A stretch of DNA of 64,000 nt from Acidimicrobiia bacterium (GCA_024637275.1 JAGXFS010000140.1:11562-75561), one strand, 5' to 3'; positions 1,399 to 19,507 are shown, counted from the first letter of the stretch. Notes: generated from the letters alone by a model not told the origin. Program-made: numbers and translations.

Positions 1399-1433
1399 CT
1401 GGTACTCCGGTCGGTGGCAGCATCCTAGTGGCG

Positions 1434-2462: not shown

Positions 2463-2480
2463 GATCTCTCTTCCGACTGG

Positions 2481-3623: not shown

Positions 3624-3688
3624 CTGAACACTCTCGACATAGGAGCCGTAGCGTACACGAGATCAGTGTCCAGACCGACCGGCCCGGA

Positions 3689-4231: not shown

Positions 4232-4878
4232 CCACCCACCGTGGTCGTGGTCGTCGAGGAATCTGGCGTCGTGGTCGTGGTCGTGGTCTCGTCGACCGGG
4301 ATATCCGGTTCTGCAACCTCTGGCGGGAGCGGAACGACAATCGCCCCCGTCGTGAACGCCATCGCGTTGATCGTAACTGTCAGGGTGTTGACGCCGGTCT
4401 CGCTGTCAATTGCAGGAGCTACGGTGATCCCGTCAACCCGAATCAGCCGATCCAATTCCGCAAGCCCGTACATGTATCCGAGCACTTCGAAATACTGGCC
4501 CGTAACGGTCATAGCGAGCGCCACCTCACGGACTCCGGTATTGCTCTGTTCGCCCGGAGTACTGAAACTGACAGCTTCCCAAACGACGTTGGCACGGTCA
4601 GCCAACACCGACAACTCATCCGTCAAACCGTCAATCTGCGGAAGTTCCGGGATAGACAACAGCATGTTGGCGTTGGCACGGTCATATTCGGGGAGCCGCT
4701 CATTAATCCGATTCAACTCGTTGAGACGTTGACGTAGCGCGTTCTCTTGGGCTTGGAGTGTTGACAGCTCCTGCTCCTGGATTGCGATGTCCTCGCCAAT
4801 CGGGGTCCACAGTAGGAAGTAGAAGGCTGCGCCAACCAAAAGCATCAGTGGAATCGCGATGAGCATGGCCCGTCTCAT
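4228..4878 (-). CDS. pilO: Type IV pilus assembly protein PilO
   Basis: The track ORF 4228..5025 overlaps pilN, so an internal Met (MRRAMLIAIPLMLLVGAAFYF...) was chosen as start. TM helix followed by a coiled coil (ELSTLQAQENALRQRLNELNRINERL). Thr-rich C-terminal tail. Confidence 0.6.
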   Translation of the reverse strand: MRRAMLIAIPLMLLVGAAFYFLLWTPIGEDIAIQEQELSTLQAQENALRQRLNELNRINERLPEYDRANANMLLSIPELPQIDGLTDELSVLADRANVVWEAVSFSTPGEQSNTGVREVALAMTVTGQYFEVLGYMYGLAELDRLIRVDGITVAPAIDSETGVNTLTVTINAMAFTTGAIVVPLPPEVAEPDIPVDETTTTTTTPDSSTTTTTVGG

Positions 4879-5504
4879 TCTGAAATCTCCACGATGCGGG
4901 TCGTCGACCGGTTCGAAAGTGCCTGAGTAGTGAGAGATGCCGACGATGAGAAGTCCACCGTCGAGAAATCGCCAATCGCGGCTTGGGTAATACTTGATAC
5001 CCAAGCACCCCCGAGTGCGGACCACTCAGTTGAGTCGAGGGTTCTAAACCAGGTTGAAGCATCCGGATAGTCAAAGGCGGTACCGGTAAACGTCACCGAC
5101 CCGTAAGTTGGGGTTTCACCGGTGTCGTCTTCGGGAGGAGCGGCGCCGGCCGTCAACGTTCCGACCCAGGTCCGCGGAGGTAAAACCCTCCCGAGGTCGT
5201 TCAAGAATCGACCCCAGTCGACGTCCACCGCCAGAGATTCAGTGATCTGCGAAGAGCGGCTTTCATAAAGATCAAGCGCTGCCGCTGCGTCGGACAACGC
5301 CGCAATGTCATTCTCAAGACGGGCGTTCGCCGCGCGCTGATTGTCGACGTTGTCAACGGCAGCGGACAGAGCCTGCGTTCGGAGGAACCACAACCCACCA
5401 AGGGCCACGAGAAAAATCACGAACAAGAGAACCACAAACGCGGAGCCACGCCGCTGCCGGGCAGCCCGTGCTTGCTCGGGAGGCAGGAGATTAATCGGCC
5501 GCAC
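4875..5504 (-). CDS. pilN: Type IV pilus assembly protein PilN
   Basis: 209 aa with the PilN hallmark N-terminus MRPINLLPPEQ (INLLP motif), then a TM helix and coiled coil. Abuts the pilM stop. Confidence 0.65.
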   Translation of the reverse strand: MRPINLLPPEQARAARQRRGSAFVVLLFVIFLVALGGLWFLRTQALSAAVDNVDNQRAANARLENDIAALSDAAAALDLYESRSSQITESLAVDVDWGRFLNDLGRVLPPRTWVGTLTAGAAPPEDDTGETPTYGSVTFTGTAFDYPDASTWFRTLDSTEWSALGGAWVSSITQAAIGDFSTVDFSSSASLTTQALSNRSTTRIVEISE

Positions 5505-6578
5505 TTATGCTTCTCCCCATAGTGCCAGACCAACCGCCACCGGCAGAACCGGTTGGGTCTGGTTGAGTTCCTCTTCGGTTAAGCCAGTCTTGCCTACGGA
5601 TAGTCGGTCGGAATTCAGCAACGCTACCGGTTGGAGCTGCATGTTGAGCTGGACCCGCATGCGGTTGGCGAGGTGCGGGAGACGCGCTCCGTTGCCAGCG
5701 ATCATGATGGTGTCGATCCCCCCGTCTTCGGCCGACGAAAGATAGAAATCAAGCGAACTGCGCACCTCATCGACCAGTGCGTCAGCCTGGCGGGTCAATG
5801 CAGCCATCGCTACGGCATCCGGGTCATTGCCAGTCGGCATTCCTTCGATAGCCACACCCAGACGCCGCTTCAACTGCTCAGCTTGATCCTGATCAATACC
5901 CAGAGCGTCCGTGACGCTCTGGGTGAAGTCGTTGCCGCCGTTGGGCACAATGCGCAAGAATCGCAACGTGCCGCCTTTGATGACGAGCACCTGCGTCAAG
6001 CTCGCGCCGATATTGACAATCGCCTTCGGGTTGGGACTCAGGTCGATGTCCCCACCGGTGGCCGCCCGCACCAGCGCAAACGCCTGGAGGTCAATAGCCT
6101 TGGGCTTGATGCCGGCTCCACCCAAAATCCGCACCACATCCGAAGCCATCTCCTTCTGGGCGGCCACGACCATGATCGACATGCGGGCTTCGCCTTCTGG
6201 CGTTGAAAACTCCTCCAACGGAACGAAATCCAGGATGGCTTCGTCGATGGGAATGGGAATATATTCTTGCGCTTGGAAAGCCAGCGACTCCGCCAGTTCG
6301 CTCTCCTGCATATAGGGCACAGAGATCTGGCGGACGATCACACGTTGATTGGCAATCCCGACAATCACATTCTTCTTGGGGATCTTCGCCTCTTTGAACA
6401 GCCGGGTTAGGGCGTCCTGGAGCACGGTTTCGTCGACGATCTCGCCGTTCTGAATTGCTCCGGGCGGCAACGCGACTTCTGCGAACTTCTTGAGGACCGG
6501 CGGACCCTTTTTCGAGGTCTCAACAAGCGCAGCTCGTACGGCACTCGTTCCGATGTCCAGACCGACATTGGCGGTCAT
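5505..6578 (-). CDS. pilM: Type IV pilus assembly ATPase-like protein PilM (actin-like fold)
   Basis: Start set at the internal Met of MTANVGLDIGTSAVRAALVE, the PilM/FtsA-like phosphate-1 motif. It is preceded by AAGGAG on the minus strand. The track ORF runs to 6608. Confidence 0.8.
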   Translation of the reverse strand: MTANVGLDIGTSAVRAALVETSKKGPPVLKKFAEVALPPGAIQNGEIVDETVLQDALTRLFKEAKIPKKNVIVGIANQRVIVRQISVPYMQESELAESLAFQAQEYIPIPIDEAILDFVPLEEFSTPEGEARMSIMVVAAQKEMASDVVRILGGAGIKPKAIDLQAFALVRAATGGDIDLSPNPKAIVNIGASLTQVLVIKGGTLRFLRIVPNGGNDFTQSVTDALGIDQDQAEQLKRRLGVAIEGMPTGNDPDAVAMAALTRQADALVDEVRSSLDFYLSSAEDGGIDTIMIAGNGARLPHLANRMRVQLNMQLQPVALLNSDRLSVGKTGLTEEELNQTQPVLPVAVGLALWGEA

Positions 6579-6691
6579 TCTTACGCTCCTTGGCGGCCAG
6601 CACCGCAATCCCTTGCCCGTAGGCTACAACATCGTAATTACAAACGTGTTGTTTTGGAAGCGTAGCCGCGTGCGAGCGATCGTCGCAAGAA

Positions 6692-7489
6692 CTAGCCGAT
6701 GCCGAGATAAGCCCGGGCGATCTCATTGCCGAACGCAATCGCCAGCCAGGCACCAGCAACCATCGATGGGCCAAAAGGAATTGCGTCCTTGCGACTAACT
6801 CGCCTGGTGATAAGGAGAAGAATCGACACTCCCCCACCGATGAAGACCGCCCCGAACACCGCTACAACCAAAGCCGCCCAGGACACGTATCCAACGAACA
6901 TACCGAGGAAAAACGCCAGCTTCACATCACCCATCCCGAAGCCGGCCGGTACGAGCAAAGCCAGGATGAGAAAACCACCAAAATATGCGAGTGCGGTGAT
7001 CCAGGATCGACCGTAGGAACCAAGCCCACCTTCCGCAACTGCCCCCGCCCCGAGCAGCAGAGCACCAACTAGTGCTCCCGGGAACAGAATCCGGTTGGGG
7101 ATCCGTTTGGTGTCAAAATCGATGAGCGCCAAGGCCAACGTAACGGCGGCAAACCACAAATAGGCGACGACCGTCCAGTCCAGACCGACGACGAGGTAGA
7201 CGCCGTAAAACAGCGCTGCATTGGCCGCCTCTACGAGCGGGTACCGCGCCGAAATAGGAGTGCGACAGGAACGGCATTTCCCGCGCAAGAGAAGCCAAGA
7301 CAGGACCGGGAGGTTGTCATACGGCTTGATCTCCGTCCCACAGTTCGGGCAAGCCGACGGCGGGCTGACCACAGACAGACCTGCCGGGATTCGATAGACG
7401 ACCACGTTCAGAAAAGAACCAACGACGAGCCCAACCACGATGAACAGATACGGCGCGACTAGCTCAAGGTTGTCCAAATACAGATCCAT
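6692..7489 (-). CDS. pilD: Prepilin peptidase (A24 family, PilD)
   Basis: Zinc-binding Cys tetrad (CPNCGTEI...CRSCRTPI) followed by about 8 TM helices and the DxxxxxG region. Start placed at the internal MDLYLDN; the track ORF extends to 7636 in an unlikely N-terminal extension. Confidence 0.8.
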   Translation of the reverse strand: MDLYLDNLELVAPYLFIVVGLVVGSFLNVVVYRIPAGLSVVSPPSACPNCGTEIKPYDNLPVLSWLLLRGKCRSCRTPISARYPLVEAANAALFYGVYLVVGLDWTVVAYLWFAAVTLALALIDFDTKRIPNRILFPGALVGALLLGAGAVAEGGLGSYGRSWITALAYFGGFLILALLVPAGFGMGDVKLAFFLGMFVGYVSWAALVVAVFGAVFIGGGVSILLLITRRVSRKDAIPFGPSMVAGAWLAIAFGNEIARAYLGIG

Positions 7490-7539
7490 GTGTCCTACTC
7501 GATCGGTCGTGGAGCCTACCCCAAGACCGATCAGTTCAA

Positions 7540-8007
7540 CTACCAACCATTCTGGCAATCGGCGAGTAGGCCGAAGGTCATCGTGGCATCCTGGCCAAAG
7601 TAGGTGCCGGCCGCAGAACCAGATCCCTCGTCCCACAAACAGAACCAGGTACCCGAGTTGCTTTGCGCGACGAACATCACAGCCTGGTCGGCCAGTCCAT
7701 CGGCATTGGCGAGGATCACAAATCCCACCTCGTCCGGGGTCGGCGCCAGCCCGGCGACATACGCGATCCCGGCGTGCACGCGGTCGAGTTCCGGTACTCC
7801 GAAGTTGTAGTCGGCGTTGGTATCGGCATAAATCACCTTGGCCGCAGACAAAGAGTTGCGTAGATCGCTCTGCACAGCTCGGTCCTAGGCCCTGACTCTG
7901 GCTCCTAAGAACGTTGGTATCGCAATGGCAATGAGAATGGCAATAATGAGAACCACCACCATCAGCTCTACCAACGTGAAGCCTTCTTCGTCATGTTTCA
8001 GACGCAT
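7540..8007 (-). pseudogene. Type IVa major-pilin paralog interrupted by an in-frame amber codon at 7885..7887
   Basis: Reading the minus strand from the ATG at 8005..8007 (preceded by GAGGAG) gives MRLKHDEEGFTLVELMVVVLIIAILIAIAIPTFLGARVRA-TAG-DRAVQSDLRNSLSAAKVIYAD..., all in one frame. The intact paralog at 8205..8720 has Gln at the aligned position (GARERAQDRAAQSNLRN). Confidence 0.6.
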
Positions 8008-8019
8008 GAGCTCCTCGCT

Positions 8020-8050
8020 TTCAAATTGTTATATATAGAGAGTTGTATCG
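8020..8050 (-). promoter_or_regulatory. AT-rich putative promoter (-10-like TATATA) for the downstream pilin/pilD transcription unit
   Basis: The stretch ttgttatatatagagagttgtat is strongly AT-rich in an otherwise ~65% GC window. It lies about 20-40 nt upstream of the pilin RBS and start, just after the upstream terminator. Confidence 0.25.
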
Positions 8051-8105
8051 GCGCCAGACAGCTGATGCTGTAGCTCCAAGACGGAGTAGCGGACGCCGGG
8101 TCGAG

Positions 8106-8140
8106 AGAGTATTGGCACCAACTCCACAAAAAAGGGACCG
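8106..8140 (-). terminator. Rho-independent terminator following the intact pilin gene
   Basis: Perfect hairpin aaagggaccgcc-cgaa-ggcggtcccttt. On the minus strand it is followed by a T-run (TTTTTTGTGG). It sits 65 nt downstream of the pilin stop. Confidence 0.55.
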
Positions 8141-8204
8141 CCCGAAGGCGGTCCCTTTCGAATCCGAGCTACCTGACGAATCAGGCAGATCTCAGTTTGG
8201 TTTC

Positions 8205-8720
8205 TTACCAGTCAGTGGCGGCGCACTCGGCCCGGGTGAAGCTCAAGTCGACACCGGTCAGGTCCGACCCGTAGGTGGTACCCGAACCGTACGTCCCGTT
8301 CGTCAACACATCTGAGATACAGAAGCTCGTGCCCGAGGCCGAGTCCGTCGTGAAGGTGATGACCTGACGGTCAGCTGCCGCACTGTTGTTCTCGACAACG
8401 TAGCCAACTTCGTTGGCTCCGACGGTGATGGCTCCAGCAACGAAGGTCAAGCTGGGCTCGATAGCGTTCAGGAGAGCCGGCGTAACATCGGCGGCAGCAC
8501 CATTGGAGAAGTCTTCTTCGTCGGTGTAGTGCACCTTGGCCGAAGTCAACGCGTTGCGAAGGTTCGACTGGGCGGCACGGTCCTGAGCACGCTCACGAGC
8601 ACCGAGGAAGGTCGGGATGGCGATGGCGATAAGAATGGCAATAATCAAAACAACGACCATCAACTCGACGAGGGTGAAACCCTCTTCTTTGTTCAGGCGG
8701 TTACGCATCCATGAAATCAT
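8205..8720 (-). CDS. pilA: Type IVa major pilin (class III signal peptide)
   Basis: 171 aa. Leader MISWMRNRLNKEEG, then FTLVELMVVVLIIAILIAIAIP (cleavage after Gly, Glu at +5). Two Cys near the C-terminus (FCISD...AECAATDW), probably a disulfide-bonded loop. AAGGAG lies 7 nt upstream of the ATG. Confidence 0.8.
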   Translation of the reverse strand: MISWMRNRLNKEEGFTLVELMVVVLIIAILIAIAIPTFLGARERAQDRAAQSNLRNALTSAKVHYTDEEDFSNGAAADVTPALLNAIEPSLTFVAGAITVGANEVGYVVENNSAAADRQVITFTTDSASGTSFCISDVLTNGTYGSGTTYGSDLTGVDLSFTRAECAATDW

Positions 8721-8888
8721 TATGGGACTCCTTATAAGTGTTCAATGTTCCCTGCAGGCCGTCTTGACCTACGTAGGTGTTATCGACGCCCCGGCGCCGA
8801 GACTTAAGAACTAATCCACGATTCTTTAACGAGCCAGGGACCCGCAAAAAGCGAATCCCTGTCTCCGGAATTGGACCGGTTAGCTGGT

Positions 8889-10115
8889 TTACTGGACGAG
8901 GTTGACGATATTGAACATCGGCATATAGAGGGCGATCAACATGCCACCCACGGTCGCACCCAAAACGACGATAAGGAGCGGCTCGATGAGGCTGGTGAGG
9001 CCTTCGACCATCGCCTCGACCTCAGAATCGTAGAAGTCGCCAACCTTCTCGAGCATCGTGTCGAGGGCACCCGTTTCCTCCCCGACGGCGATCATCTGAA
9101 CGACCATCGGCGGAAACACCGGATGATCTCTTAGTGGGGCCGCAATCGACTCACCTTCAGCGACGGACGCCTTGACATCCTGGACGGCTCGAGCCACCAC
9201 GGCGTTGCCGGCGGTGTCAGACACAATATCCATCGCCTGGAGGATTGGCACCCCGGTCTTGGTTAGCGCTGCCAGCGTGTGCGAGAACCGAGCAATAGCC
9301 GTCTTATGAATCAGATTTCCGAAGATCGGCAGCTTCAACTTGATGGCGTCGAAGGTAGATCGTCCACCGTCGGTGGCGATCCACCTCTTGAACGACACCA
9401 GCGAACCAACCGACACAATGATCACGGCCCACCAGTAGGTGGTGACCAGCTTCGAGAGGAGCAACAAGAACTTGGTTGCACCGGGGAGCTCTCCCCCGAG
9501 GTCCGCGTATAGCGCCTCGAACATCGGTACCACGAAGATGATCATGGCCGCGACGATGAAGATAACCAGTCCGAACACCGCGATCGGATACATCATGGCC
9601 GACTTGATTTTGGACCGCAGGGCGACCTGTGCCTCGAGAGTATCGGCGAGCCGCAACAGCGTGTCGTCGAGCACACCACCCACCTCACCAGCCTTCACCA
9701 TGGCGGTGTACAGCTGGTTGAAGGCCTTCGGGTGTTGTTCCATGGCCGCTGAGAGGCTCGTACCACGTTCGACGTCAGCTTTGACCAGGTCGATGATGTC
9801 GGAGAGTGCCTTGTTCTCGGTCTGGTCCGAGAGGATACTGAGCGACCGTAGCAGCGACAGGCCCGCATTGATCATCGTGGCGAACTGCCGCGAGAAAATC
9901 GCCACGTCCTTGGCCTTCACGCGATCGGTGAGGCCCGGAATCTTGATCTCTTTCTTCAAACCAGAGTTCGCCGCGGCCGTCTCGGACAGACTGAGCGGGC
10001 TCAGGCCCTTGCCCCGCAACGCTGTCGCGGCAGCCGTCTGCGTGGAGGCTTCGATCGTGCCCTTCTTGACTTTGCCGTCCGAGTCTTTGGCCCGGTATTC
10101 AAATGTTGTAGCCAT
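8889..10115 (-). CDS. pilC: Type IV pilus platform protein PilC (GspF family)
   Basis: 408 aa with two GspF-type repeats and three TM segments. Lies between pilT and the pilin gene. Confidence 0.85.
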   Translation of the reverse strand: MATTFEYRAKDSDGKVKKGTIEASTQTAAATALRGKGLSPLSLSETAAANSGLKKEIKIPGLTDRVKAKDVAIFSRQFATMINAGLSLLRSLSILSDQTENKALSDIIDLVKADVERGTSLSAAMEQHPKAFNQLYTAMVKAGEVGGVLDDTLLRLADTLEAQVALRSKIKSAMMYPIAVFGLVIFIVAAMIIFVVPMFEALYADLGGELPGATKFLLLLSKLVTTYWWAVIIVSVGSLVSFKRWIATDGGRSTFDAIKLKLPIFGNLIHKTAIARFSHTLAALTKTGVPILQAMDIVSDTAGNAVVARAVQDVKASVAEGESIAAPLRDHPVFPPMVVQMIAVGEETGALDTMLEKVGDFYDSEVEAMVEGLTSLIEPLLIVVLGATVGGMLIALYMPMFNIVNLVQ

Positions 10116-10125
10116 GCTCTATCTC

Positions 10126-11694
10126 CTAAGCCACGCGACCGACAAGTCGCTGTAGATCTTCCAGGTCAGAGCACCGCTCCGCGGCGAGCTCGTAGGTAAT
10201 AATGTTTCGTCGCACCAGGTCCGCCAGGGACTGGTCCATGGTTTGCATGCCCCACTTTCCGCCGGCTTGCATGGCGGTGGCGATCTGGTGGTTCTTTCCT
10301 TCGCGAATCAGGTTTCTAACCGCAGGGGTTGCGACCATCACTTCGATGGCTGGAACCCGGCCACGGCCGTCACGGGTAGGCAACAGTTGCTGGGTTACGA
10401 CCGCTTGCAGCGTGGCTGCCAGCTGAACCCGGACCTGGCCCTGCTGGTGCGAAGGGAACACGTCGATCATACGATCGATCGTCTGGGGGGCGTCCTGGGT
10501 ATGAAGTGTGGCAAAAACCAGGTGGCCGGTTTCGGCTGCGGTCAGGGCGGTAGAGATGGTTTCCAGATCTCGCAGCTCACCTACCAGGATTACATCGGGG
10601 TCCTGGCGGAGGGCATGGCGCAGCGCCATGTTGAACCCCATGGTGTCTGCGCCGACCTCACGCTGGTTGACGATCGCCTTCTGATGGTGGTGTAGAAACT
10701 CGATGGGATCTTCAACGGTAAGAATGTGGCAGGCGCGTCGGCGGTTGATGAGGTCGACGATCGACGCCAGGGTGGTCGACTTACCGGAACCGGTAGGTCC
10801 CGTGACGAGGACGAGGCCACGCGCATATTCTGCGAACTCACCGACGACGGTCGGCACACCGAGTTCCTCAAGCGGCTTGATTACGTCCGGAATGGCGCGG
10901 AACACCGCCCCAACCGCGTCACGTTGAAAGAAAACGTTAAGACGGAAACGACCTTTGCCCGGCAACGGATGTGAGGCGTCGAGTTCTAGCGACTCTTCCA
11001 GCTTCTCACGCTGCTTCTCAGTCAGGATCGCATAGATCATGCGCCGGATGTCTGCCGGCATCATGATGCCAAAGTCCGTGAGTTGCCGAAGCTCGCCGTT
11101 GACGCGGATCTGAGGAGACGAGCCAGCGGTGATGTGGAGGTCAGATCCACCCTGGTCGACCAGGATCGTGAGCAACGTGTTGACATGAAGTGCCGGCTCG
11201 GCGACCTCGATGTCCGGCACGGCGCCGCCCATGCCGGGGACCCGGGTAACCGGGATTTCCTCCGGTCCATGCATGAACGAGATGGCCCGCTGGATGGCTT
11301 CCTTGGTAGCCAGAGCGAGGGTGATCTTCTTACCGGTGATCTGTTCGAGGCGCCGATGGCGTTCGGCGTCGAAGGGGTCAGCGACCGCAACCGTGAGGAC
11401 GTTATCCACCAATCGGACGGGAATCGCCAGGAGGGCGGCGGAGTCGTCGCCACTCAAGGCGGCGATTGCCTCTGGGTCGAAAAGCTGATCGTCGAGTTCG
11501 ACGTATTCCATCCCGACCCGGGCAGCAACGGTTTTGAGGAGGTCTTCTTCACGCACGAGGCCGTCATCGGTAAGGATCTTCGCCATCGGCGTACCGGTGG
11601 TTTGCTCTTTGGCCAACACTGTCTCAAGCACATCTTTTGAGAGAAGGTGCCGGTCAACGAGGAGCTCGCCAAGTTTTCGCGATGCTGAGTTCAT
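10126..11694 (-). CDS. pilT: Pilus retraction ATPase PilT with an N-terminal GspE-N/MshEN-like extension
   Basis: The C-terminal ~350 aa carry PilT hallmarks: SDLHITAGSSPQIRVNGEL, Walker A GPTGSGKST, the Asp-box, His-box ATLHTQD and the PilT-specific AVRNLIREGKNHQI. The first ~170 aa contain two repeats resembling the GspE N-terminal domain (KLGELLVDRHLLSKDVLETVLAKEQ and MAKILTDDGLVREEDLLKTVAARVGMEYVEL). Confidence 0.8.
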   Translation of the reverse strand: MNSASRKLGELLVDRHLLSKDVLETVLAKEQTTGTPMAKILTDDGLVREEDLLKTVAARVGMEYVELDDQLFDPEAIAALSGDDSAALLAIPVRLVDNVLTVAVADPFDAERHRRLEQITGKKITLALATKEAIQRAISFMHGPEEIPVTRVPGMGGAVPDIEVAEPALHVNTLLTILVDQGGSDLHITAGSSPQIRVNGELRQLTDFGIMMPADIRRMIYAILTEKQREKLEESLELDASHPLPGKGRFRLNVFFQRDAVGAVFRAIPDVIKPLEELGVPTVVGEFAEYARGLVLVTGPTGSGKSTTLASIVDLINRRRACHILTVEDPIEFLHHHQKAIVNQREVGADTMGFNMALRHALRQDPDVILVGELRDLETISTALTAAETGHLVFATLHTQDAPQTIDRMIDVFPSHQQGQVRVQLAATLQAVVTQQLLPTRDGRGRVPAIEVMVATPAVRNLIREGKNHQIATAMQAGGKWGMQTMDQSLADLVRRNIITYELAAERCSDLEDLQRLVGRVA

Positions 11695-11821
11695 GGCTTC
11701 TAGTTCCCCTTATCGATCACATTTTGTGGGTCAATGTATCTTCGGCAGGCCTCGCGGCCGACTTAATGGATAATCGAGGTGGCTTGGAACTTTGACCCGG
11801 CGGTGGTCCCGGCGGGACGCG

Positions 11822-13504
11822 CTACACAGTAACGCGGAGGATCTCTTCGATCGAGGTATCTCCGCGACGTGCCTTGATGAGGCCGTCCTGGCGGAGCGGA
11901 CGCATACCTTCCTGCACGGCTACCTTCTTGATGGAGTCCGTGGTCGCCTGGTCTACGGCCATCCGCTCGATCGTTTCTGAGACGAGCATGAGCTCATGCA
12001 ACGCGAGTCGCCCCCGGTACCCGGTGTCACCACACCGTGCGCAGCCGCCCGGCTTGAACAGTTCGGGAACTTCGTCCCCAAACTCGTCGAACTGCCAACC
12101 AACCCTGGCCAAGGCGTCCTTGGTCGGTTGATAGGGGGTCTTGCACTCCCCACACAACCGGCGGGCCAGGCGCTGCCCGAGGACGGAATCGACAGCTGAC
12201 CCGACGAGGAATGGTTCGACGCCCATCTCGATCAGGCGGCTGATGGCCGACGGAGCATCATTGGTATGCATCGTCGAGAGCACCAGGTGACCGGTAAGAG
12301 CAGACTCGATGGCGATCTCGCCGGTCTCCTGGTCCCGGATCTCACCAACGAGCATGATGTCGGGGTCCTGACGCAAGAACGAGCGCAACGCCGACGCGAA
12401 GGTCAGGCCGGCCTTCTTGTTCACCTGGACCTGATTGATTCCGTTGAGGCGGTACTCGACCGGATCCTCACAGGTCACGATGTTGACGTCGGGCTGATTC
12501 AGCACATTCAGCGTTGAATAGAGCGTTGTTGACTTACCGGAACCAGTCGGGCCACAGCACAGGATCGTTCCATACGCCTTGTTATATGAGGAAGCATATC
12601 GCTCGAGGGTGTCTGGCTCGAAACCAAGTTGTTCCAGTTCGAGGGTGGCCGTTGAATTGTCGAGAATACGCATGACGATCTTCTCGCCGTAGATGGTGGG
12701 AAGGGATGAAACGCGCAAGTCGATCGTTTTCGTTCCTCCCACTCGCAGGCTGATACGACCGTCTTGGGGTCGACGTCGTTCCGCAATGTCCATGTCGGCC
12801 ATGATCTTCAAACGACTGACCACGGCGTTACTGACCGATCGCGGGGTCCGCATAATCTCGTGCAACACACCGTCCACCCGGAACCGCACCCGCAGGTCCT
12901 TGTCCGTTGGCTCGATGTGGATGTCAGACGCCCGCTCTGCCGCAGCCTTAGCGATAAGCATGTTGACCAATTTGACGATGGGAGCTTCTTCGGTGGACGC
13001 TTCGACCGCATTGAGGTCTTGCGTTTCCATCTCGTCTTCGCCAAAGCCGGCGAAGTCGGTGACCGAGTCGTCGAGGCCGGCATTGTTTGCAATGGCGTTT
13101 TCAACGTCGCTTCGTGTTGCAACCTTGGCGATGACGTCGCGACCCGAGATCGCCCGAATGTCATCGATCGCCAGCACATTGGCGGGGTCAGACAGCGCTA
13201 CGACGAGCTTATCGTCTTCAAAACCGATCGGGATAGCCGCATACCGGCGAGCGAGGGCATCGGGAATAAGCGCCGTAGCGGCGGGATCGATGGTGATTTC
13301 CTTGAGGTCGACGAACTCAACGCCGATCGCCTTCGCCAACGTGCGAACCAGGTCACGCTCGGAGACAATCTTCTCCTCGACCAGCACCCGCCCAAGCGGA
13401 CGGCCAGTCTCGGCCGCCATGGCCAGACCTTTCTCAAGGAGTTCCTGAGTTAGCAGCCCCTCCTCAAGGAGGAGGCTGGCGAGGTGTCCGCTATCACGAG
13501 TCAT
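11822..13504 (-). CDS. pilB: Type IV pilus assembly (extension) ATPase PilB, GspE family
   Basis: 560 aa. GspE-N domain at the N-terminus (LASLLLEEGLLTQELLEKGL...), Walker A GPTGSGKSTT, and the tetracysteine zinc motif (CGECK...CARCGDTGYRGR) typical of PilB/GspE. Confidence 0.85.
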   Translation of the reverse strand: MTRDSGHLASLLLEEGLLTQELLEKGLAMAAETGRPLGRVLVEEKIVSERDLVRTLAKAIGVEFVDLKEITIDPAATALIPDALARRYAAIPIGFEDDKLVVALSDPANVLAIDDIRAISGRDVIAKVATRSDVENAIANNAGLDDSVTDFAGFGEDEMETQDLNAVEASTEEAPIVKLVNMLIAKAAAERASDIHIEPTDKDLRVRFRVDGVLHEIMRTPRSVSNAVVSRLKIMADMDIAERRRPQDGRISLRVGGTKTIDLRVSSLPTIYGEKIVMRILDNSTATLELEQLGFEPDTLERYASSYNKAYGTILCCGPTGSGKSTTLYSTLNVLNQPDVNIVTCEDPVEYRLNGINQVQVNKKAGLTFASALRSFLRQDPDIMLVGEIRDQETGEIAIESALTGHLVLSTMHTNDAPSAISRLIEMGVEPFLVGSAVDSVLGQRLARRLCGECKTPYQPTKDALARVGWQFDEFGDEVPELFKPGGCARCGDTGYRGRLALHELMLVSETIERMAVDQATTDSIKKVAVQEGMRPLRQDGLIKARRGDTSIEEILRVTV

Positions 13505-13510
13505 GATGCC

Positions 13511-14545
13511 TTAGTGGGAGTCCTGAGTTTCGCCGAGTTCGCGAGCTAATGCGCTCAACCCGCCCCGGCGGCGGCTCAGATTGGCGGCCCGCTCACTGAG
13601 CGTGCCTTCGAGATCGTCTGTGGCATCGTAGTCGGAGGTGACAATCTCAACGGAGTCGTCGTCGCTCCCCGCCTCTCCGATAACTCCCGAGAGAACGGAC
13701 TGGAGCAGATCGTCGTCGTTGACGTCGTCACCATCGTTGGATGGGGCGTTGTCATCTTCGTAGACGAGGTCGGTTCGATTCATTGAGAACGTCCCTGACC
13801 CGCCCGAAGACGCCGACAATCCGAGATCGTCATCGCTATAGGTCGGGGCAGCCTCGAAACGTTCTTCGGTCACGGAAACAAGTTCCTGCCGGACCAGATT
13901 GGCCATCGCCTTGGCGACGACGAACTCTGACGTGCCGGTACGATGAGCTACTTCGGCGATTGTGCCGTGCCCACCCAACGCGGCCAGAAGCTTCCATGTT
14001 TCGATCTTGAGGGTCACATCACTGGCACCCTCTGGCAAGGTCTGCGCCATACGCAACCCGAACTTCGTTCCGGGGATGACCTCTTCAATATCAGCCCACT
14101 GCTCGGCCCGATGATCGGCGTCGGCAAGACAAATCTCGATGTCGACTACCTCTCCTGAGTCATAGCGCGGCGACACTTCATCGCCGAAGTCGAACGTACC
14201 CCGGCCAGGTCGGCCCAGGCGAAAAAGCACCTCGGTGCCCTGTTCGGCAAGGAAGTCGCGCAAGTCGGCGTGGGTGTGGCCTTCGATAAGCACCTCCGCC
14301 ACCGTCTGCTCGCGACGCTCAACCCGCATCCAGCCGTCCGTGTCCACGAATCCGGCATTGAGTAGATCGGTGCGCAGGTCTTCATCGCGTCGAGTGGTCG
14401 CATACGCGAGTTTCCCGCTCGATAAATAGATCTTTCCCTCAAGTCCACCGGCTTCAACGCGCAAACAGCCGGATTTCTGTGAGCGTGCCAGCATACGCAG
14501 CACCTCACTGAGAGGAATCGATTCGAGGCGTCCCGTCAGCGCCAT
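13511..14545 (-). CDS. DUF4388 (PATAN-like) domain protein with a long acidic low-complexity C-terminal tail
   Basis: The N-terminus GRLESIPLSEVLRMLARSQKSGCLRVEAGGLEGKIYLSSGKLAYA matches the DUF4388 signature (LxDxLQxL...KTGxL...GxIyfxxG). The C-terminal third is D/E/S-rich. The stop lies only 6 nt from the pilB start. Confidence 0.6.
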   Translation of the reverse strand: MALTGRLESIPLSEVLRMLARSQKSGCLRVEAGGLEGKIYLSSGKLAYATTRRDEDLRTDLLNAGFVDTDGWMRVERREQTVAEVLIEGHTHADLRDFLAEQGTEVLFRLGRPGRGTFDFGDEVSPRYDSGEVVDIEICLADADHRAEQWADIEEVIPGTKFGLRMAQTLPEGASDVTLKIETWKLLAALGGHGTIAEVAHRTGTSEFVVAKAMANLVRQELVSVTEERFEAAPTYSDDDLGLSASSGGSGTFSMNRTDLVYEDDNAPSNDGDDVNDDDLLQSVLSGVIGEAGSDDDSVEIVTSDYDATDDLEGTLSERAANLSRRRGGLSALARELGETQDSH

Positions 14546-14607
14546 GTTGTGACTCCTTAGTAGTCCTGCATCAATCTTCGGTAGATCGAGACAGCGCCTT
14601 GAGAGCT

Positions 14608-15393
14608 TTAGGGGCGACGAGCGGCGGCGGCCATGGCGTCATGGTCGGCCGATACGCCGGTCCAGATCGTGAATGCCGCCATTGCTTGCCCTATCAGCAT
14701 GTCGAGCCCAGGACTACAGGGGATTCCAAGTCGACCCGCTTCCAGCACTGCGGGGGTTGTCGCATCGCCATAAGGCATGTCGATGAATCCCGTGGCCGCG
14801 GCCAGGAGCCCGTCTGGCAGGTTTTCGCCGGCCATTCCGATGAGCGTCGCGTTAACGAGCACGGCCCCACTCACGGGTTTCTCCCACGGAACGAATACCG
14901 CATCGAGGTCGAGTTGCTCGAGCAGCAGTCGGGCGCGTCGCTCGTTGCGGGTGCTGACAGCCAAGTCGACGGATCCCGGATGAGCGTCAACAGCAACCAG
15001 GGCAGCCGCCGCCGCTCCACCAGCTCCGAGAACTACGACTGAATCAGACATTCCAATCCGATCAAAGGCGTACGCAACACCTGCGACATCGGTGTTTTCG
15101 GCTACGAGGGTTCCATCCGGTTCCCGCCACCAGGTGTTGGCTGCACCCAGGCGCTCGACCAGTTCGGAACGCCGATCGGCCAACGCAGCAGCCAGATGCT
15201 TATGGGGAGTGGTGATGTTCGCACCGGTCAAGGACCCGGACCGAACCTCGTCAGCTGCGGTCCGGAGGCCGTCACCATCAACCTGCCGGGCCGAATATTC
15301 GCCCGCGATCCCCGCCGCGCGTAGTCCGGCTCGGTGAATCGCCGGCGATCGAGAATGGCTGACCGGGTCGCCGAGAACGACCAATTTGATCAC
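14608..15393 (-). CDS. aroE: Shikimate dehydrogenase
   Basis: 261 aa (GDPVSHSRSPAIHRAGL...NITTPHK), the shikimate DH substrate-binding signature. Sits in the aro cluster. Confidence 0.8.
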   Translation of the reverse strand: MIKLVVLGDPVSHSRSPAIHRAGLRAAGIAGEYSARQVDGDGLRTAADEVRSGSLTGANITTPHKHLAAALADRRSELVERLGAANTWWREPDGTLVAENTDVAGVAYAFDRIGMSDSVVVLGAGGAAAAALVAVDAHPGSVDLAVSTRNERRARLLLEQLDLDAVFVPWEKPVSGAVLVNATLIGMAGENLPDGLLAAATGFIDMPYGDATTPAVLEAGRLGIPCSPGLDMLIGQAMAAFTIWTGVSADHDAMAAAARRP

Positions 15394-16460
15394 GGGAAGA
15401 GGCCCTCGGCCTTCGCCTGATCCTTCCAGGTCAGAAACTGGTTGTAGTCAGCCGTGAAACTGTGGGAGCCATCAGCGGCGGTTAGCACGTAATAGATGTA
15501 GTCGGTCTCCGGAGGATCGGCGATCGCCTCGAGCGACGCCAACCGGGGACCTCCGATGGGAGTGGGTGGGAGACCGAGGTTCTGATAGGTGTTGTACGGC
15601 GAGTCGAACTCGAGGTCGGCGAGCGTAAGTCCGATCCCCCGGGCGTCCATGGCGTACAGCACGGTGGCATCGATCTGGAGCGGCATACCAACGTCCATGC
15701 GGTTGACGATCACCGAAGCGACGTCGGGGCGATCGGCATCTACTTTTGTCTCGGCTTCGATAATCGACGCCGCGATCAAGCCTTCATAAATCGTATAGCC
15801 CCGGTCATTCCAGGCCGTCCAGTCGATCGACTCCACCCGACTCTCCATGGTACGCGCGAGTTTTCCGAGAATCGATGCAGCGCTGGCATCCGTCTCGAAT
15901 TCATAGGTGTCGGGAAAAAGCAAACCCTCCCAATCCTGAATCGACTCGGGAGGCAGTTCAAGGAGCGAGCTCTGGACTGCCCCACTGAGTAGGGCTTCTG
16001 CGAAGTCAGCTTCGCCATACGATGTCTGATTGGCTATCTCGGTGAGAACTTCCCCGATCCGCAAGCCTTCACGGACGGTGATTCGATAAGTCTCGAAGGC
16101 CGGGCCAGCCAGGAAGGCCGCGATGACGTCGTCGGTTGCCATCCCGGTGGTCAGCTCATACCGACCGGCGCCGAGACGCTGCGTATAGCCGCCGTCCTCG
16201 ACCGCGCTCTCAAACACCCGCGCCGACCCGATGACATCGGCCTCCTGGAGAAGGGAAGCGATGGTACGGGCCGATGCCCCGGCCGGGACTTCGACCGTCA
16301 CGGGAACTCCAACCGTCGCCGTCGCCTGTACGGTTGTCTCGGTAGGGGTAAACAGGTCCGAGAACATGGCTTTTCCGGCCAGACCGAGGCCTGCCAACGC
16401 AGCCAGGACCACTACGACGGCTAGAACGCTCCGATTCCGGGGTTCTTCAAACGAGGTCAT
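15390..16460 (-). CDS. mltG: Endolytic murein transglycosylase MltG (YceG family)
   Basis: 356 aa with an N-terminal TM helix followed by a YceG-like domain. Conserved position between ruvX and aroE. Confidence 0.8.
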   Translation of the reverse strand: MTSFEEPRNRSVLAVVVVLAALAGLGLAGKAMFSDLFTPTETTVQATATVGVPVTVEVPAGASARTIASLLQEADVIGSARVFESAVEDGGYTQRLGAGRYELTTGMATDDVIAAFLAGPAFETYRITVREGLRIGEVLTEIANQTSYGEADFAEALLSGAVQSSLLELPPESIQDWEGLLFPDTYEFETDASAASILGKLARTMESRVESIDWTAWNDRGYTIYEGLIAASIIEAETKVDADRPDVASVIVNRMDVGMPLQIDATVLYAMDARGIGLTLADLEFDSPYNTYQNLGLPPTPIGGPRLASLEAIADPPETDYIYYVLTAADGSHSFTADYNQFLTWKDQAKAEGLFP

Positions 16461-16863
16461 GACTATCTCCTACTGGTTGCGAGTCAAGCCAGCGCTGCAA
16501 CAGCACCGCCGCAGCTACTTTGTCAACGACCCCTTTTCGCTTTTCCCGTCTGACCCCTGACTCGATGAGAACCGACTGTGCTACGGCGGTGGTGTAGCGC
16601 TCATCGACCATCTCGACCGGGACGCCGGCGATCTCTCCAATTCGTTCCGCAAACTCGCTAGACGCCCGTGCTGCGGCGTCATTTCGGCCTTTGAGATGAG
16701 TCGGCAGGCCGACGACAATTCGCTCGACGTCCTGTTCCTCGACAATCTGGCGCACTTGTTCGTCGAACGCGCCAGCCTCAACCACCCGGAACGGTTGGGC
16801 AGTGATATGTAACTGATCAGAAAGGGCGACACCGATCCGGCTCGTGCCGTAATCGACGCCCAT
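16447..16863 (-). CDS. ruvX: Putative pre-16S rRNA nuclease / Holliday junction resolvase-like YqgF
   Basis: 138 aa (MGVDYGTSRIGVALSD...), the RuvX catalytic N-terminus. Directly downstream of alaS. Confidence 0.85.
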   Translation of the reverse strand: MGVDYGTSRIGVALSDQLHITAQPFRVVEAGAFDEQVRQIVEEQDVERIVVGLPTHLKGRNDAAARASSEFAERIGEIAGVPVEMVDERYTTAVAQSVLIESGVRREKRKGVVDKVAAAVLLQRWLDSQPVGDSHDLV

Positions 16864-16879
16864 AATGCGTCCCAGGGTT

Positions 16880-19507
16880 CTATACCTCCGCGAGGGTTCT
16901 TTCGGCGCTCTCCCTGGCTGCCTCCAGCGCCGCGCCTAAGTTGCTTCCATTCGGTCCGCCGGCTTGGGCCAGCTCTGGATCCCGACTGCCTCCCCCACCA
17001 AGGTAGCTGGCCCCGGCAGCTACCAGATCAGCCGCCGAAACTCCCCGTTCTACCTGGTCCTTTGTCACCAAACCAACCAGGGCACCTTTTCCACCGAGTG
17101 CCGAACCAATAAGGACTACTCCCGACGTCAACCGGTCCCGAATCGCCATAGCCAACAGCCGTAATTCGTCCGGCCGCAGATTACTTCGGTCGGCAACCAC
17201 CAACGATACCGCGCCTACTTTTGTCGCATCCGCAATCAGATCGGCAGCATCAGCTGACCGGGCCTGATCGGCCAGGGCAGCAAGCTCAGACTCAAGAGAC
17301 TGGTTCTTGTCCAATAAGGCTTCGATTCGCGCCGGAACGTCGCCAGGAGCCGCCCGCAGGGCTGCGCCTGCGCTATCCAAAAGCTGCCGCATCTTGGCCA
17401 GATAGGCATACCCGTCGCTGCCCGAGAACGCTTCGATACGTCGGACGTTCGACCCAACGGACGACTCGGCGGTCAGCACAACCGGACCGACCTGACCGGC
17501 ACTGGGGGTATGGGTGCCACCGCAAAGCTCTTTGGAGAACTCACCGATTCTGACCATACGGACAGTGTCGCCGTACTTGTCACCAAAGAACGCCAACGCT
17601 CCTTGGGCTTTGGCTTCATCCATCGAGGTAACCAACGTCTTGATATGAGAGTTGTGGATAATCTGCTCGTTGGTGATCCGCTCGATCTCGGCAATCTCGT
17701 CGTCGGCTAGCGGGGCGTGATGGTTGAAATCGAAGCGCAGTCGTCCGGGTTCCACTAGTGAGCCGGCCTGATGGGCCTGGTCGCCGATCACCTTGCGCAA
17801 TGCCGCATGCACGATGTGGGTACCGGTGTGGGATTTTCTGATCCGCTCACGCCGAGGCGAATCGATCGCCAGGTCGGCCGGCTGACCGGTCTGAATAAAC
17901 CCATCGGTCACCTTGCCCCGGTGTCCGTGGAATCCCTGGACAGCGTGTTTGGTGTCGAACACGGCGACGGTACCGGTCTCAGTCTTGATCGTTCCAGTAT
18001 CACCGACCTGGCCACCGCTCTCGGCGTAAAACGGGGTTGTGTCGAGAAACACCTCGACGGTTTGGCCCTTCTCGCCTCGTTCGACCTGGTCACCTTCCAA
18101 CAGCATCGCCAGCACCGTGCCTGAACTGGCTTCGGATTCATAACCGACAAAATTGGTTGGTCCGACAGCATCGAGGATCGAAAGGTACATCTGCCCGAGT
18201 GCCGCCTCGGCTCCCCCGGTGAAAGCCGCTTTCGCACGCGTCCGTTGAGCGGCCATCTCCGTGTCAAAGGCGTCGACATCCACCTCGAAGCCGGCTTCCC
18301 CAGCAATCTCCTTCGTCAGTTCGATGGGAAATCCGAACGTGTCGTGCAGCTTGAAGGCCACGGACCCCGGAAACGCCATGCCAGATTTGAGCGATGCGAG
18401 TGCTTCGGACATGAGACCCTGGCCGGCCTCGAGGGTCTTGCGGAACTGGCTTTCCTCCCGCTCGACCACGGTCATGAGCGTCTCACGCTTTTCGATGAGG
18501 TTGGGATGCCCACCCCCAAGCACGTCGATGACGACCTCGGTCAAACGCGGCATCAGCAAGCCCACGCCGCCTAGCTGCCACCCGTGGCGCACTGCCCGTC
18601 GCAGAATCCGGCGCAGCACGTAGCCCCGTCCAGCATTGGATGGAGTTACGCCATCGCCGACCAACATCGCCACGGTCCGAGCATGGTCAGCCATGATCTT
18701 CAAGGACACGTCGGTCGCGGCGTCCTCGCCAAATGTCACGGATCCGTAGGCGGCCGCCTCTTCGAGAACCGGACGGATGGTGTCAATTTCGAAAATCGAA
18801 CCGGCTTCCTGCATGACCATCGCCACCCGTTCGAGGCCCATACCGGTGTCAATACTCTTGGCCGGCAGGTCACCGATCACGTGGTAGGGCACGTCCTGGA
18901 TGTTCTGCATGAACACGAGGTTCCAGATCTCTACATAACGATCTTCGTCGCCACCGATCGGGCCACCTTCGGCTCCGAACTCGGGACCCCGGTCAAAAAA
19001 TATCTCGGAGGAAGGCCCACAAGGACCAGCCACTCCCATCTGCCAGAAATTGTCATTACCACCACGTTGCACCCGCTGCGGGTCAATGCCTTCCTGGTCG
19101 ATCCACAGAGCAGCGGCCTCGTCGTCGGTCTCGTAGACGGTGTACCACAGGCGCTCTTCAGGAAGCCCGAGCACCTCGGTTACAAACTCGTGCGCCCAGG
19201 CGATTGCCTCGGATTTGAAGTAATCGCCAAAGCTGAAGTTACCCAGCATTTCGAAGAAGGAAATGTGGCGATCGGTAGTCCCAATAATGTCTATGTCGAT
19301 GGTGCGGACGCACTTCTGCGGAGACACAGCTCGATCGAACGGGGCGGGCTCTTCACCGAGGAAATAGGGCTTAAAGGGCACCATCCCGGCGTTGGTCAAC
19401 AGCAAGGTGGGATCGATCGGGATGAGCGACGCTGACGGCCGCACCACGTGGGCGCGCGAGGCGAAGAAATCCACAAAGGCTTGGCGAATCTGATTGCTGG
19501 TTTCCAT
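16880..19507 (-). CDS. alaS: Alanine--tRNA ligase
   Basis: 875 aa with class II aaRS motifs, the editing domain HxxxH...CGGTH and a C-terminal DHHA1-like region. Confidence 0.95.
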   Translation of the reverse strand: METSNQIRQAFVDFFASRAHVVRPSASLIPIDPTLLLTNAGMVPFKPYFLGEEPAPFDRAVSPQKCVRTIDIDIIGTTDRHISFFEMLGNFSFGDYFKSEAIAWAHEFVTEVLGLPEERLWYTVYETDDEAAALWIDQEGIDPQRVQRGGNDNFWQMGVAGPCGPSSEIFFDRGPEFGAEGGPIGGDEDRYVEIWNLVFMQNIQDVPYHVIGDLPAKSIDTGMGLERVAMVMQEAGSIFEIDTIRPVLEEAAAYGSVTFGEDAATDVSLKIMADHARTVAMLVGDGVTPSNAGRGYVLRRILRRAVRHGWQLGGVGLLMPRLTEVVIDVLGGGHPNLIEKRETLMTVVEREESQFRKTLEAGQGLMSEALASLKSGMAFPGSVAFKLHDTFGFPIELTKEIAGEAGFEVDVDAFDTEMAAQRTRAKAAFTGGAEAALGQMYLSILDAVGPTNFVGYESEASSGTVLAMLLEGDQVERGEKGQTVEVFLDTTPFYAESGGQVGDTGTIKTETGTVAVFDTKHAVQGFHGHRGKVTDGFIQTGQPADLAIDSPRRERIRKSHTGTHIVHAALRKVIGDQAHQAGSLVEPGRLRFDFNHHAPLADDEIAEIERITNEQIIHNSHIKTLVTSMDEAKAQGALAFFGDKYGDTVRMVRIGEFSKELCGGTHTPSAGQVGPVVLTAESSVGSNVRRIEAFSGSDGYAYLAKMRQLLDSAGAALRAAPGDVPARIEALLDKNQSLESELAALADQARSADAADLIADATKVGAVSLVVADRSNLRPDELRLLAMAIRDRLTSGVVLIGSALGGKGALVGLVTKDQVERGVSAADLVAAGASYLGGGGSRDPELAQAGGPNGSNLGAALEAARESAERTLAEV

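Follow-up and report, generated by a model that had tools for sequence, protein, structure and literature searches.

A PilT-type ATPase with an N-terminal GSPII/MshEN domain in the type IVa pilus operon of uncultured Acidimicrobiia

The gene described here, located in a 64,000-nucleotide stretch of DNA from an uncultured Acidimicrobiia bacterium (GCA_024637275.1, JAGXFS010000140.1:11562-75561; called the window below, with positions counted from its first nucleotide), is the pilT gene of a Gram-positive-style type IVa pilus operon. Its product is a PilT-type ATPase which carries, in front of the PilT core, an N-terminal domain of the GSPII/MshEN (N1) type. Judged from the homologous sequences collected, this fusion is the form of every Acidimicrobiia pilT sampled here. 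By analogy with related systems, the most likely role of the additional domain is that of a partner-docking or regulatory handle on the retraction motor, with the PilM/PilC platform and a PATAN regulator as the putative partners; this assignment is a tentative one. Canonical binding of cyclic di-GMP (c-di-GMP) by the domain, argued from the mutagenesis of homologous domains, is the less likely reading. The features of the gene are listed below.

10126..11694, minus strand: gene for a PilT-type ATPase with an N-terminal GSPII/MshEN domain, an ATG-to-stop open reading frame (ORF) of 522 amino acids (aa), stop codon at 10126-10128
11705..11711, minus strand: candidate ribosome-binding site AAGGGGA, about 11 nucleotides (nt) 5' of the pilT ATG, as read from the sequence
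11515..11694, minus strand: residues 1-60, predicted four-helix bundle (MshEN_N or "alpha-clip" subdomain), with helices at residues 3-14, 20-33, 37-43 and 49-60 in the AlphaFold2 (AF2) model
11605..11676, minus strand: motif I, KLGELLVDRHLLSKDVLETVLAKE, residues 7-30, with a canonical K-L-G start, His (not Gly) at position 10 and Glu (not Gln) at position 24
11518..11589, minus strand: motif II, PMAKILTDDGLVREEDLLKTVAAR, residues 36-59, with Ala (not Gly) at position 3, Thr at position 7 and Arg (not Gln) at position 24
11263..11514, minus strand: residues 61-144, predicted alpha/beta subdomain (MshEN_C, the equivalent of the GspE N1E-type fold; PF05157), with AF2 strands at residues 90-96, 99-104 and 123-128
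11197..11262, minus strand: linker, residues 145-166, predicted to be disordered (predicted local distance difference test score, pLDDT, <50), poorly conserved and with many gaps in the family
10129..11196, minus strand: complete PilT core (N2 domain and C-terminal ATPase domain), residues 167-522, TIGR01420 at residues 171-510, pLDDT mostly >85
10777..10800, minus strand: Walker A, GPTGSGKS, residues 299-306 (motif scan)
10300..10323, minus strand: PilT-signature motif AVRNLIRE, residues 458-465 (motif scan)

The C-terminal two thirds of the protein had been described from the sequence as PilT, and this was borne out by the NCBIfam model of the PilT/PilU family (TIGR01420), which scored 477.9 bits against a cut-off of 319.1, residues 171-510 corresponding to profile positions 2-340 of 343. 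The peptides quoted in the preliminary description were all found in the 522-aa translation. The same model matched 64 of 64 family members. The motif scan also located the other catalytic boxes, EDPIE at residue 328, Walker B (VILVGELRD) at 368 and the His box (TGHLVFATLH) at 389; the residues of Walker A and of these three boxes are invariant in the family alignment, where the signature motif takes the form A/G-I/V-R-N-L-I-R-E. The scan revealed no tetracysteine motif (C..C...C..C) in the fused PilT, whereas the neighboring PilB has one, and the protein scored far under the equivalog models for PilB (TIGR02538, 186.9 bits, cut-off 675.65) and GspE (TIGR02533, 139.8 bits, cut-off 630.25). By every sequence test the core is that of a catalytically intact PilT-type ATPase, and from homology and operon context the protein is presumed to drive pilus retraction. 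An AF2 model of the full-length protein (mean pLDDT 85.9, built on 64 homologues) falls into three parts: the N-domain (residues 1-144) and the PilT core are predicted with confidence, and the linker between them (residues 145-166) is disordered.

The first 170 residues or so had been likened to the N-terminal domains of GspE and MshE, and profile searches agreed with this. Pfam assigned the region to MshEN (PF05157, residues 61-139, 55.1 bits, gathering cut-off 23.1) and not to an unrelated domain or to low-complexity sequence, while the 53-residue "c-di-GMP_motif" model of NCBIfam (NF053729) matched residues 7-57 with 38.3 bits, a slight margin over its cut-off of 38. Among family members, NF053729 matched 63 of 64 (E <= 1e-3), the best with E = 9e-18. 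The two repeats noticed in the extension correspond to two 24-residue MshEN motifs, at residues 7-30 and 36-59, separated by exactly five residues, and the alpha/beta subdomain which follows holds a conserved VAVADPF segment with D106-P107. Compared by sequence with proteins of solved structure, the first 170 residues were closest to Thermus PilF (9.3e-30, summed over its three domains, GSPII-A being the best), followed by several PilB proteins (about 1e-9) and by MshE (5HTL, 6e-7).

The N-domain was also modeled alone (AF2, pLDDT 81) and the model was searched against the PDB with Foldseek. In the predicted fold a four-helix bundle leads into a three-stranded sheet with flanking helices, and the best 20 PDB matches were all GSPII/MshEN domains, the N-domain of XpsE included. 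The best match was PilF GSPII-A (E = 5e-11); c-di-GMP-bound MshE (5HTL) gave a template modeling (TM) score of 0.78 and a root-mean-square deviation of 2.6 Å, c-di-GMP-bound PilF GSPII-B a TM score of 0.77-0.79, and the complex of the Xanthomonas citri PilB N-domain with PilZ (7LKM) a TM score of 0.69-0.72. The alpha/beta subdomain matched 2BH1 (EpsE-N:EpsL) and 4PHT (GspE:GspL) weakly, over about 62-64 residues with E > 0.1.

The fusion, which the preliminary description had reported from this one protein and proposed to look for among its homologues, is a conserved architecture. Altogether 223 full-length homologue clusters carry it, and the organism labels, where the sources give one, are those of metagenome-assembled genomes (MAGs) of Acidimicrobiia/Actinomycetota only. 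Both PF05157 and PF00437 were present in 119 of the 120 top-ranking homologue clusters, whose identity extended down to 57%, and most of these were 500-550 aa long, the lone short homologue being P0098 with 356 aa. When a divergent fragment (P0141, whose N-domain is 41% identical) served as the seed of a second search, about 110 more clusters were recovered, alike in architecture and taxon labels. Compared with a genome collection, the window itself matched an uncultured Acidimicrobiia MAG at 99%. In the loci that were fetched, an N-domain in frame with a PilT core was present only in nine from Acidimicrobiia, and it was absent from the loci of Leifsonia, Solirubrobacterales, Lentisphaerae, Kiritimatiellia, Chromatiaceae, Clostridia and two unclassified MAGs. 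In the Solirubrobacterales MAG (L016, 7864-9045) the pilT-like region matched in two pieces in different frames with no clean ORF; it looks frameshifted, through a long-read assembly error or as a pseudogene, and its N-terminus is not judgeable. In Leifsonia kafniensis (L007, 7077-9113) the pilT ORF between pilB and pilC encodes 678 aa, its predicted start lies 40 nt after the pilB stop codon, and the place of MshEN in front of the PilT core is taken by an Ala- and Pro-rich, probably disordered region of about 300 residues.

Mean pairwise identity among 114 full-length members was 57% in the bundle, 40% in the alpha/beta subdomain, 19% in the linker (measured over residues 145-170), 64% in the N2 domain and 75% in the ATPase domain. 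Based on these regional values the N-domain is under purifying selection, the bundle more strongly than the rest. With the N-domains of PilB from the same lineage, those of the PilT proteins share 27-38% identity, and they resemble PilB N-domains from other phyla just as closely. A recent copying of the N-domain from the neighboring pilB is not supported by these values, and since the own-lineage PilB is no closer than those of other phyla, the fusion is old.

A search of representative sequences with the N-domain only returned mostly gene fragments and multi-GSPII PilF-like proteins and no full-length fused representatives; it served only to bring out divergent fragments and one further protein, P0241. 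This is an 887-aa PilT-family ATPase (TIGR01420, 408 bits) encoded at 6106-8769 of locus L017, in which the ATPase follows two MshEN modules with near-canonical c-di-GMP motifs (NF053729, 100 bits). Its gene adjoins a gene for a tetratricopeptide repeat protein, outside any pilus operon, in a single Logan assembly. No orthologue was found in a dedicated search of 5.8 billion clusters, and P0241 was dismissed as a sign of a wider class of c-di-GMP-binding PilT proteins, being a single anecdote from one assembly.

The c-di-GMP site of MshEN domains is formed by two 24-residue motifs (RLGxx[LVI][LVI]xxG[LVIF][LVI]xxxxLxxxLxxQ) with five residues between them (PMC5013675). Counted over the 223 full-length members, the spacer was five residues in every one, with the 24+5+24 layout throughout. 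In motif I, position 1 was Arg in 130 and Lys in 68 members, position 2 Leu in 215 and position 3 Gly in 222; position 10 was Lys, Arg or His in 221 and never Gly, and position 24 was Glu in 214 and Gln in a single one. In motif II, position 1 was Pro in 210 members, position 3 was Ala in 102, Ser in 67, Pro in 40 and Gly in one, and position 24 was Gln in 130 and Arg in 80. Positions 2, 17 and 21 of each motif, which make up the leucine clusters, were hydrophobic throughout, and D106 was kept. None of the 114 members fitted the relaxed 53-mer of Wang et al. (2016), in which each motif reads [RKPN]hGxxhhxx[GAS]hhxxxxhxxxhxx[QNKRYWST], and the window protein breaks it at positions 10 (His) and 24 (Glu) of motif I and at positions 3 (Ala) and 7 (Thr) of motif II. 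The known nanomolar binder GSPII-B fails the regular expression too; this expression was therefore set aside as an imperfect classifier, and the per-position counts and the published mutagenesis were relied on instead. The alignment of the repeats with the MshEN motif thus upheld the spacing and a canonical first half-site, while positions 10 and 24 of motif I and position 3 of motif II are non-consensus across the family and position 24 of motif II is so in the window protein; the loose fit noticed earlier for the first repeat holds for its K-L-G start and leucine cluster, though not for the His at position 10 and the Glu at position 24.

The genes around the fused pilT, on which its proposed role partly depends, are the following.

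13511..14545, minus strand: gene for a PATAN (DUF4388/PatA_N) protein, directly upstream of pilB (PF14332, 65.2 bits)
11822..13504, minus strand: pilB, 560-aa extension ATPase with its own N1/MshEN domain (TIGR02538, 652 bits, just under the cut-off of 675.65; PF05157, 72.6 bits; NF053729, 44.6 bits)
8889..10115, minus strand: pilC, platform protein of 408 aa (PF00482, 227 bits; PilC models of NCBIfam, 414-432 bits)
8205-8720, minus strand: pilin gene (Pfam N_methyl)
6692-7636, minus strand: pilD, prepilin peptidase (Pfam A24_N_bact/Peptidase_A24)
5505-6608, minus strand: pilM (Pfam PilM_2)
4875-5504, minus strand: pilN (Pfam PilN)
4228-5025, minus strand: pilO (Pfam PilO)

The gene order in the window, all on the minus strand, is alaS, ruvX, mltG/yceG, aroE, PATAN, pilB, pilT, pilC, pilin, pilD, pilM, pilN, pilO, a 180-aa ORF, aroC, aroB and efp. 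The pilB stop codon is separated from the fused pilT gene by 127 nt, and pilC starts 10 nt past the pilT stop codon. The order PATAN-pilB-pilT-pilC-pilin-pilD-pilM is kept in two further Acidimicrobiia loci (L018 and L019), around members which are only 57-63% identical. The whole pilus operon lies inside a housekeeping block (alaS-ruvX-mltG-aroE...aroC-aroB-efp, 841-19507, minus strand), with the same insertion point in both loci. No second PilT or PilB was found within the 64-kb window; a weak PilT-like match at 62.5 kb was that of the ATPase of an ATP-binding cassette transporter and is irrelevant. The 180-aa ORF directly after pilO (3689-4231, minus strand) had no Pfam or NCBIfam match, and its equivalent in L018 is an unannotated gene of 230 aa; it may encode a lineage-specific pilus component.

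The N-domain of PilB is 31% identical to that of the fused PilT and colinear with it from residue 1, with one gap (BLASTP). In this PilB the motifs (residues 7-59) are non-consensus, motif I reading HLASLL...A and motif II PLGRVL, its positions 10 and 24 being Lys and Ala; among PilB proteins of Acidimicrobiia the motifs vary (QLGALL, ELGSLL, and PLARYL in motif II). The PATAN protein is a candidate regulator of the motor ATPases. It had no NCBIfam match, and Pfam covered its first 150 residues only; a PATAN gene directly upstream of pilB is also present in L018 (5199-6221) and L019 (4515-6245), the length of the products varying from 340 to 576 aa. PATAN co-occurs with the fused PilT in the three Acidimicrobiia contexts (the window, L018 and L019), and none lies upstream of pilB in Leifsonia, where PilT has no MshEN.

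By analogy with homologous systems, the N-domain is most likely a handle by which the retraction motor is docked to, or regulated by, other components of the machine, a role which we favor with some reserve. A flexible tether of about 22 residues links the PilT core to a PilB-type N1 domain, and six tethered N1 domains would be carried by each PilT hexamer. These would bind the same cytoplasmic partners as the N1 domain of extension ATPases, namely the PilM/PilN platform, the N-domain of PilC and/or the PATAN regulator encoded upstream. The retraction motor could by this means be recruited to, retained at or excluded from the pilus base in competition with PilB, and control by PATAN would apply to both motors and govern the exchange of PilB and PilT. 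Such binding has precedents. GspE and XpsE bind GspL through the GSPII N-terminus, and GSPII-C of PilF is required for the stimulation of its ATPase by PilMN (PMC6325625). The PATAN domains of Synechocystis bind PilB1, through its N-terminal part, and the N-domain of PilC, but not PilT1 or PilT2, which are without N1, and the "alpha-clip" insert of PATAN is similar to the repeats with which N1 domains begin (preprint 10.1101/2021.06.11.447907). The N-domain of X. citri PilB binds PilZ (PDB 7LKM). The operon described here encodes a PATAN protein, PilM and PilC beside two motors which both have N1 domains.

Several observations weigh against the docking role. Conservation is higher in the four-helix bundle, where MshE binds its nucleotide, than in the alpha/beta subdomain, with which GspE binds GspL, and a site for a small ligand would fit the conservation of the bundle as well as a protein interface would. 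The window protein just passes NF053729 (38.3 against 38), 63 of 64 members match this model, the best with E = 9e-18, and the R/K-L-G of the first half-site, the leucine clusters and D106 are retained. PilF needs no GSPII domain for the binding of PilMN (PMC6325625), and canonical PilT proteins engage the machine without an N1 domain, which makes docking by it not obviously needed. The link with PATAN consists of gene adjacency and one negative example (Leifsonia), too few for a test.

Among the alternatives, the best placed, although doubtful, is that the rewired MshEN module acts across the Acidimicrobiia as a small-molecule sensor, for c-di-GMP with micromolar affinity or for a different nucleotide, through the canonical first half-site together with the family-specific Glu30, basic residue 16 and Ala/Ser/Pro38. 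If this were true, pilus retraction would respond directly to a second messenger, something known for no PilT so far.

That the N-domain is a working c-di-GMP receptor which tunes the retraction motor directly, perhaps reciprocally with PilB, is unlikely. The profile and motif evidence which speaks for it includes the NF053729 matches (38.3 bits against 38 in the window protein; 63 of 64 members, best E = 9e-18), the 24+5+24 layout in 223 of 223 members, the R/K-L-G of motif I with its Gly in 222, the hydrophobic leucine positions and the Gln at position 24 of motif II in 130. The Pro at position 1 of motif II is found in the binder GSPII-C too, the bundle is the best-conserved part of the N-domain, and the predicted fold superposes on c-di-GMP-bound MshE and GSPII-B. 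The singleton P0241, a PilT-family protein with canonical motifs (100 bits), indicates that the concept exists in nature.

The published mutagenesis bears on each of the altered positions. In MshE, G11L and G40I each abolish c-di-GMP binding (PMC5013675). The Gly at position 3 of motif II, which is fixed even in the relaxed motif of Wang et al. and was present at position 3 of both site-forming motifs in every binder examined in the literature compared, is found in 1 of the 223 members; in GSPII-A its reversion to Ala (A41) results in a 10-fold loss (1.8 to 19 µM) and an altered binding mode (PMC12002112). At position 24 of motif I, the substitution Q190E in GSPII-B of PilF, the best binder known, raised the dissociation constant (KD) from 6 nM to 950 nM, a 158-fold loss, and Q190E together with Q218E abolished binding, although the single Gln-to-Glu mutants still bind at 0.46-0.95 µM, which is a point in favor of a receptor (PMC11731258). 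The nearest solved homologue, GSPII-A, is a non-binder whose motif II (SLAEVLVDMGLLSERRIAQTIEDR) has Ala at position 3 and Arg at position 24, as in the window protein (PMC12002112). H33Q, S39R and R62Q were all required before GSPII-A bound any c-di-GMP, the last of these restoring Gln where motif II has Arg, and even with a perfect consensus there was no binding until a helix turn stabilized by an N-cap and contacts between the subdomains were removed (PMC12002112). The turn Gly at position 10 of motif I is never present in the family and the relaxed motif is fitted by 0 of 114 members. Because the window protein has Glu, Ala and Arg at three key positions and no turn glycine, canonical high-affinity binding is unlikely. 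No GG[DE]EF motif was found in the ORFs of at least 80 aa in the window, and no Rfam match above the gathering thresholds, and with it no c-di-GMP riboswitch and not even a tRNA, was found on either strand; with 64 kb only, this is a weak test. The c-di-GMP-sensing retraction motor that the preliminary description considered possible is, as it was stated, not supported by the family-wide fixation of the altered motif positions and by this mutagenesis.

Still less probable is a remodeled module for some other small ligand, such as cyclic di-AMP, cyclic GMP-AMP (cGAMP), pGpG or a GMP-like moiety at the intact first half-site, to which Glu30, the basic residue 16 and Ala/Ser/Pro38 would be adaptations. 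The substitutions are fixed family-wide and not scattered, a pattern suggestive of new constraint and not of decay; conservation is higher in the bundle than in the alpha/beta subdomain; and MshEN shows a discernible, weaker interaction with cGAMP (PMC5013675). Only c-di-GMP, however, is established as a ligand of any GSPII domain in the literature compared, and a conserved protein-protein interface accounts for the conservation equally well.

It is equally improbable that the N-domain acts within its own protein by docking back on the PilT hexamer, or by pairing with N1 of PilB, so as to gate the ATPase or the oligomeric state and not to bring the motor to the platform. The flexible tether of about 22 residues would permit this, the N-domains of PilT and PilB are colinear homologues, and in PilF deletions of GSPII domains alter complex formation, GSPII-C relaying the PilMN signal to the ATPase domain (PMC6325625).

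That the fused protein is not a dedicated retraction motor, and instead a second extension motor or a bidirectional one, appears highly improbable. An N1 domain is otherwise diagnostic of extension ATPases, and PilT is able to promote extension of the mannose-sensitive hemagglutinin (MSHA) pilus in Vibrio cholerae (reviewed in PMC11656802). Against this, the core scored 478 bits with the PilT family model and 187 bits with the PilB equivalog (cut-off 675.65), AVRNLIRE is present and the tetracysteine motif absent, and the adjacent gene encodes a full PilB.

An annotation artefact, with the true start at an internal Met (in-frame Met residues occur at positions 37, 62, 141 and 155, and P0098 was called at 356 aa) or with a chimera or assembly error as the source of the extension, is effectively refuted and the start codon of the 522-aa protein is judged real: the N-domain, whose absence from orthologues had been considered, is kept as protein in 223 clusters from many independent assemblies and is predicted with confidence to fold, P0098 falls in the same 90% cluster as a 522-aa member, and no Met lies close to the domain boundary where it would yield a 345-aa PilT.

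Compared with the canonical PilT proteins of Pseudomonas aeruginosa, Aquifex aeolicus and Geobacter metallireducens (about 345 aa), the fused PilT shares the core of N2 domain and C-terminal domain (N2D+CTD), the Walker A, Asp box, Walker B and His box and the AIRNLIRE-type motif; like them it has no zinc tetracysteine motif, and its gene lies between pilB and pilC. It departs from the family in one respect only, the two-domain layout without N1, by having an extra domain of 144 aa, predicted to be folded, and a linker. The contrast drawn previously between 522 aa and a canonical PilT of about 345 aa with no N-terminal domain is reflected in the family profile (343 positions), which begins at residue 171.

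The N-domain shares with the c-di-GMP-binding MshEN domains the fold, the two subdomains, the leucine clusters, the DP segment, the 24+5+24 spacing and a motif I which opens with R/K-L-G. The fused protein differs from the extension ATPases which carry those domains in its PilT-type core and in positions 10 and 24 of motif I and position 3 of motif II, which are non-consensus family-wide. With the non-binder GSPII-A of Thermus PilF, the best match by sequence as well as by Foldseek (31% identity, E = 5e-11), it has in common the Ala at position 3 and the Arg at position 24 of motif II. GSPII-A is one of three tandem copies on an extension ATPase and its motif I is near-perfect except for a His at position 24, whereas in motif I of the fused PilT position 24 is Glu and position 10 is basic. 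The N1 docking modules (GspE/EpsE with GspL/EpsL, 2BH1 and 4PHT; X. citri PilB with PilZ and FimX, 7LKM; Synechocystis PilB1 with PATAN) have the same fold, and pilM and PATAN genes are present in the operon of the fused PilT; all of these modules sit on extension or secretion ATPases, unlike the fused PilT, for which docking is drawn by analogy only.

According to a 2024 review, the N1 domain distinguishes extension from retraction ATPases (PMC11656802), and the remark in the preliminary description that such a domain, normally reserved for extension ATPases, would be unusual on a retraction ATPase is well founded, as the fusion runs against this rule. In a 2023 review PilT appears only as a non-binder of c-di-GMP, and in the architecture table of the MshEN paper the representatives given for MshEN-T2SSE are PilB, MshE and GspE only, with no mention of PilT (PMC5013675). 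No description of an MshEN/GSPII domain on a PilT-type ATPase was found in the literature outside subscription-only sources. In public annotation the fused proteins are named "PilT/PilU family type 4a pilus ATPase". Two cautions for annotation follow: the combination of MshEN and T2SSE does not imply PilB, and a match to MshEN does not imply binding of c-di-GMP.

The fusion is a clade-wide exception to a rule of the pilus field, found in uncultured organisms and with an inferred mechanism. The dynamics of type IV pili rest on the swapping of PilB and PilT at the same platform, and both the control of this exchange and the function of N1 in extension motors are open questions of the field. A whole class with an N1-bearing PilT indicates that the direction of a motor is not set by N1. 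With two antagonistic motors of a single operon sharing this type of handle, beside a conserved PATAN regulator, the pili of these Acidimicrobiia offer a natural experiment in which three roles for N1, as a docking module, as the handle of a regulator and as a nucleotide sensor, are made testable with recombinant proteins.

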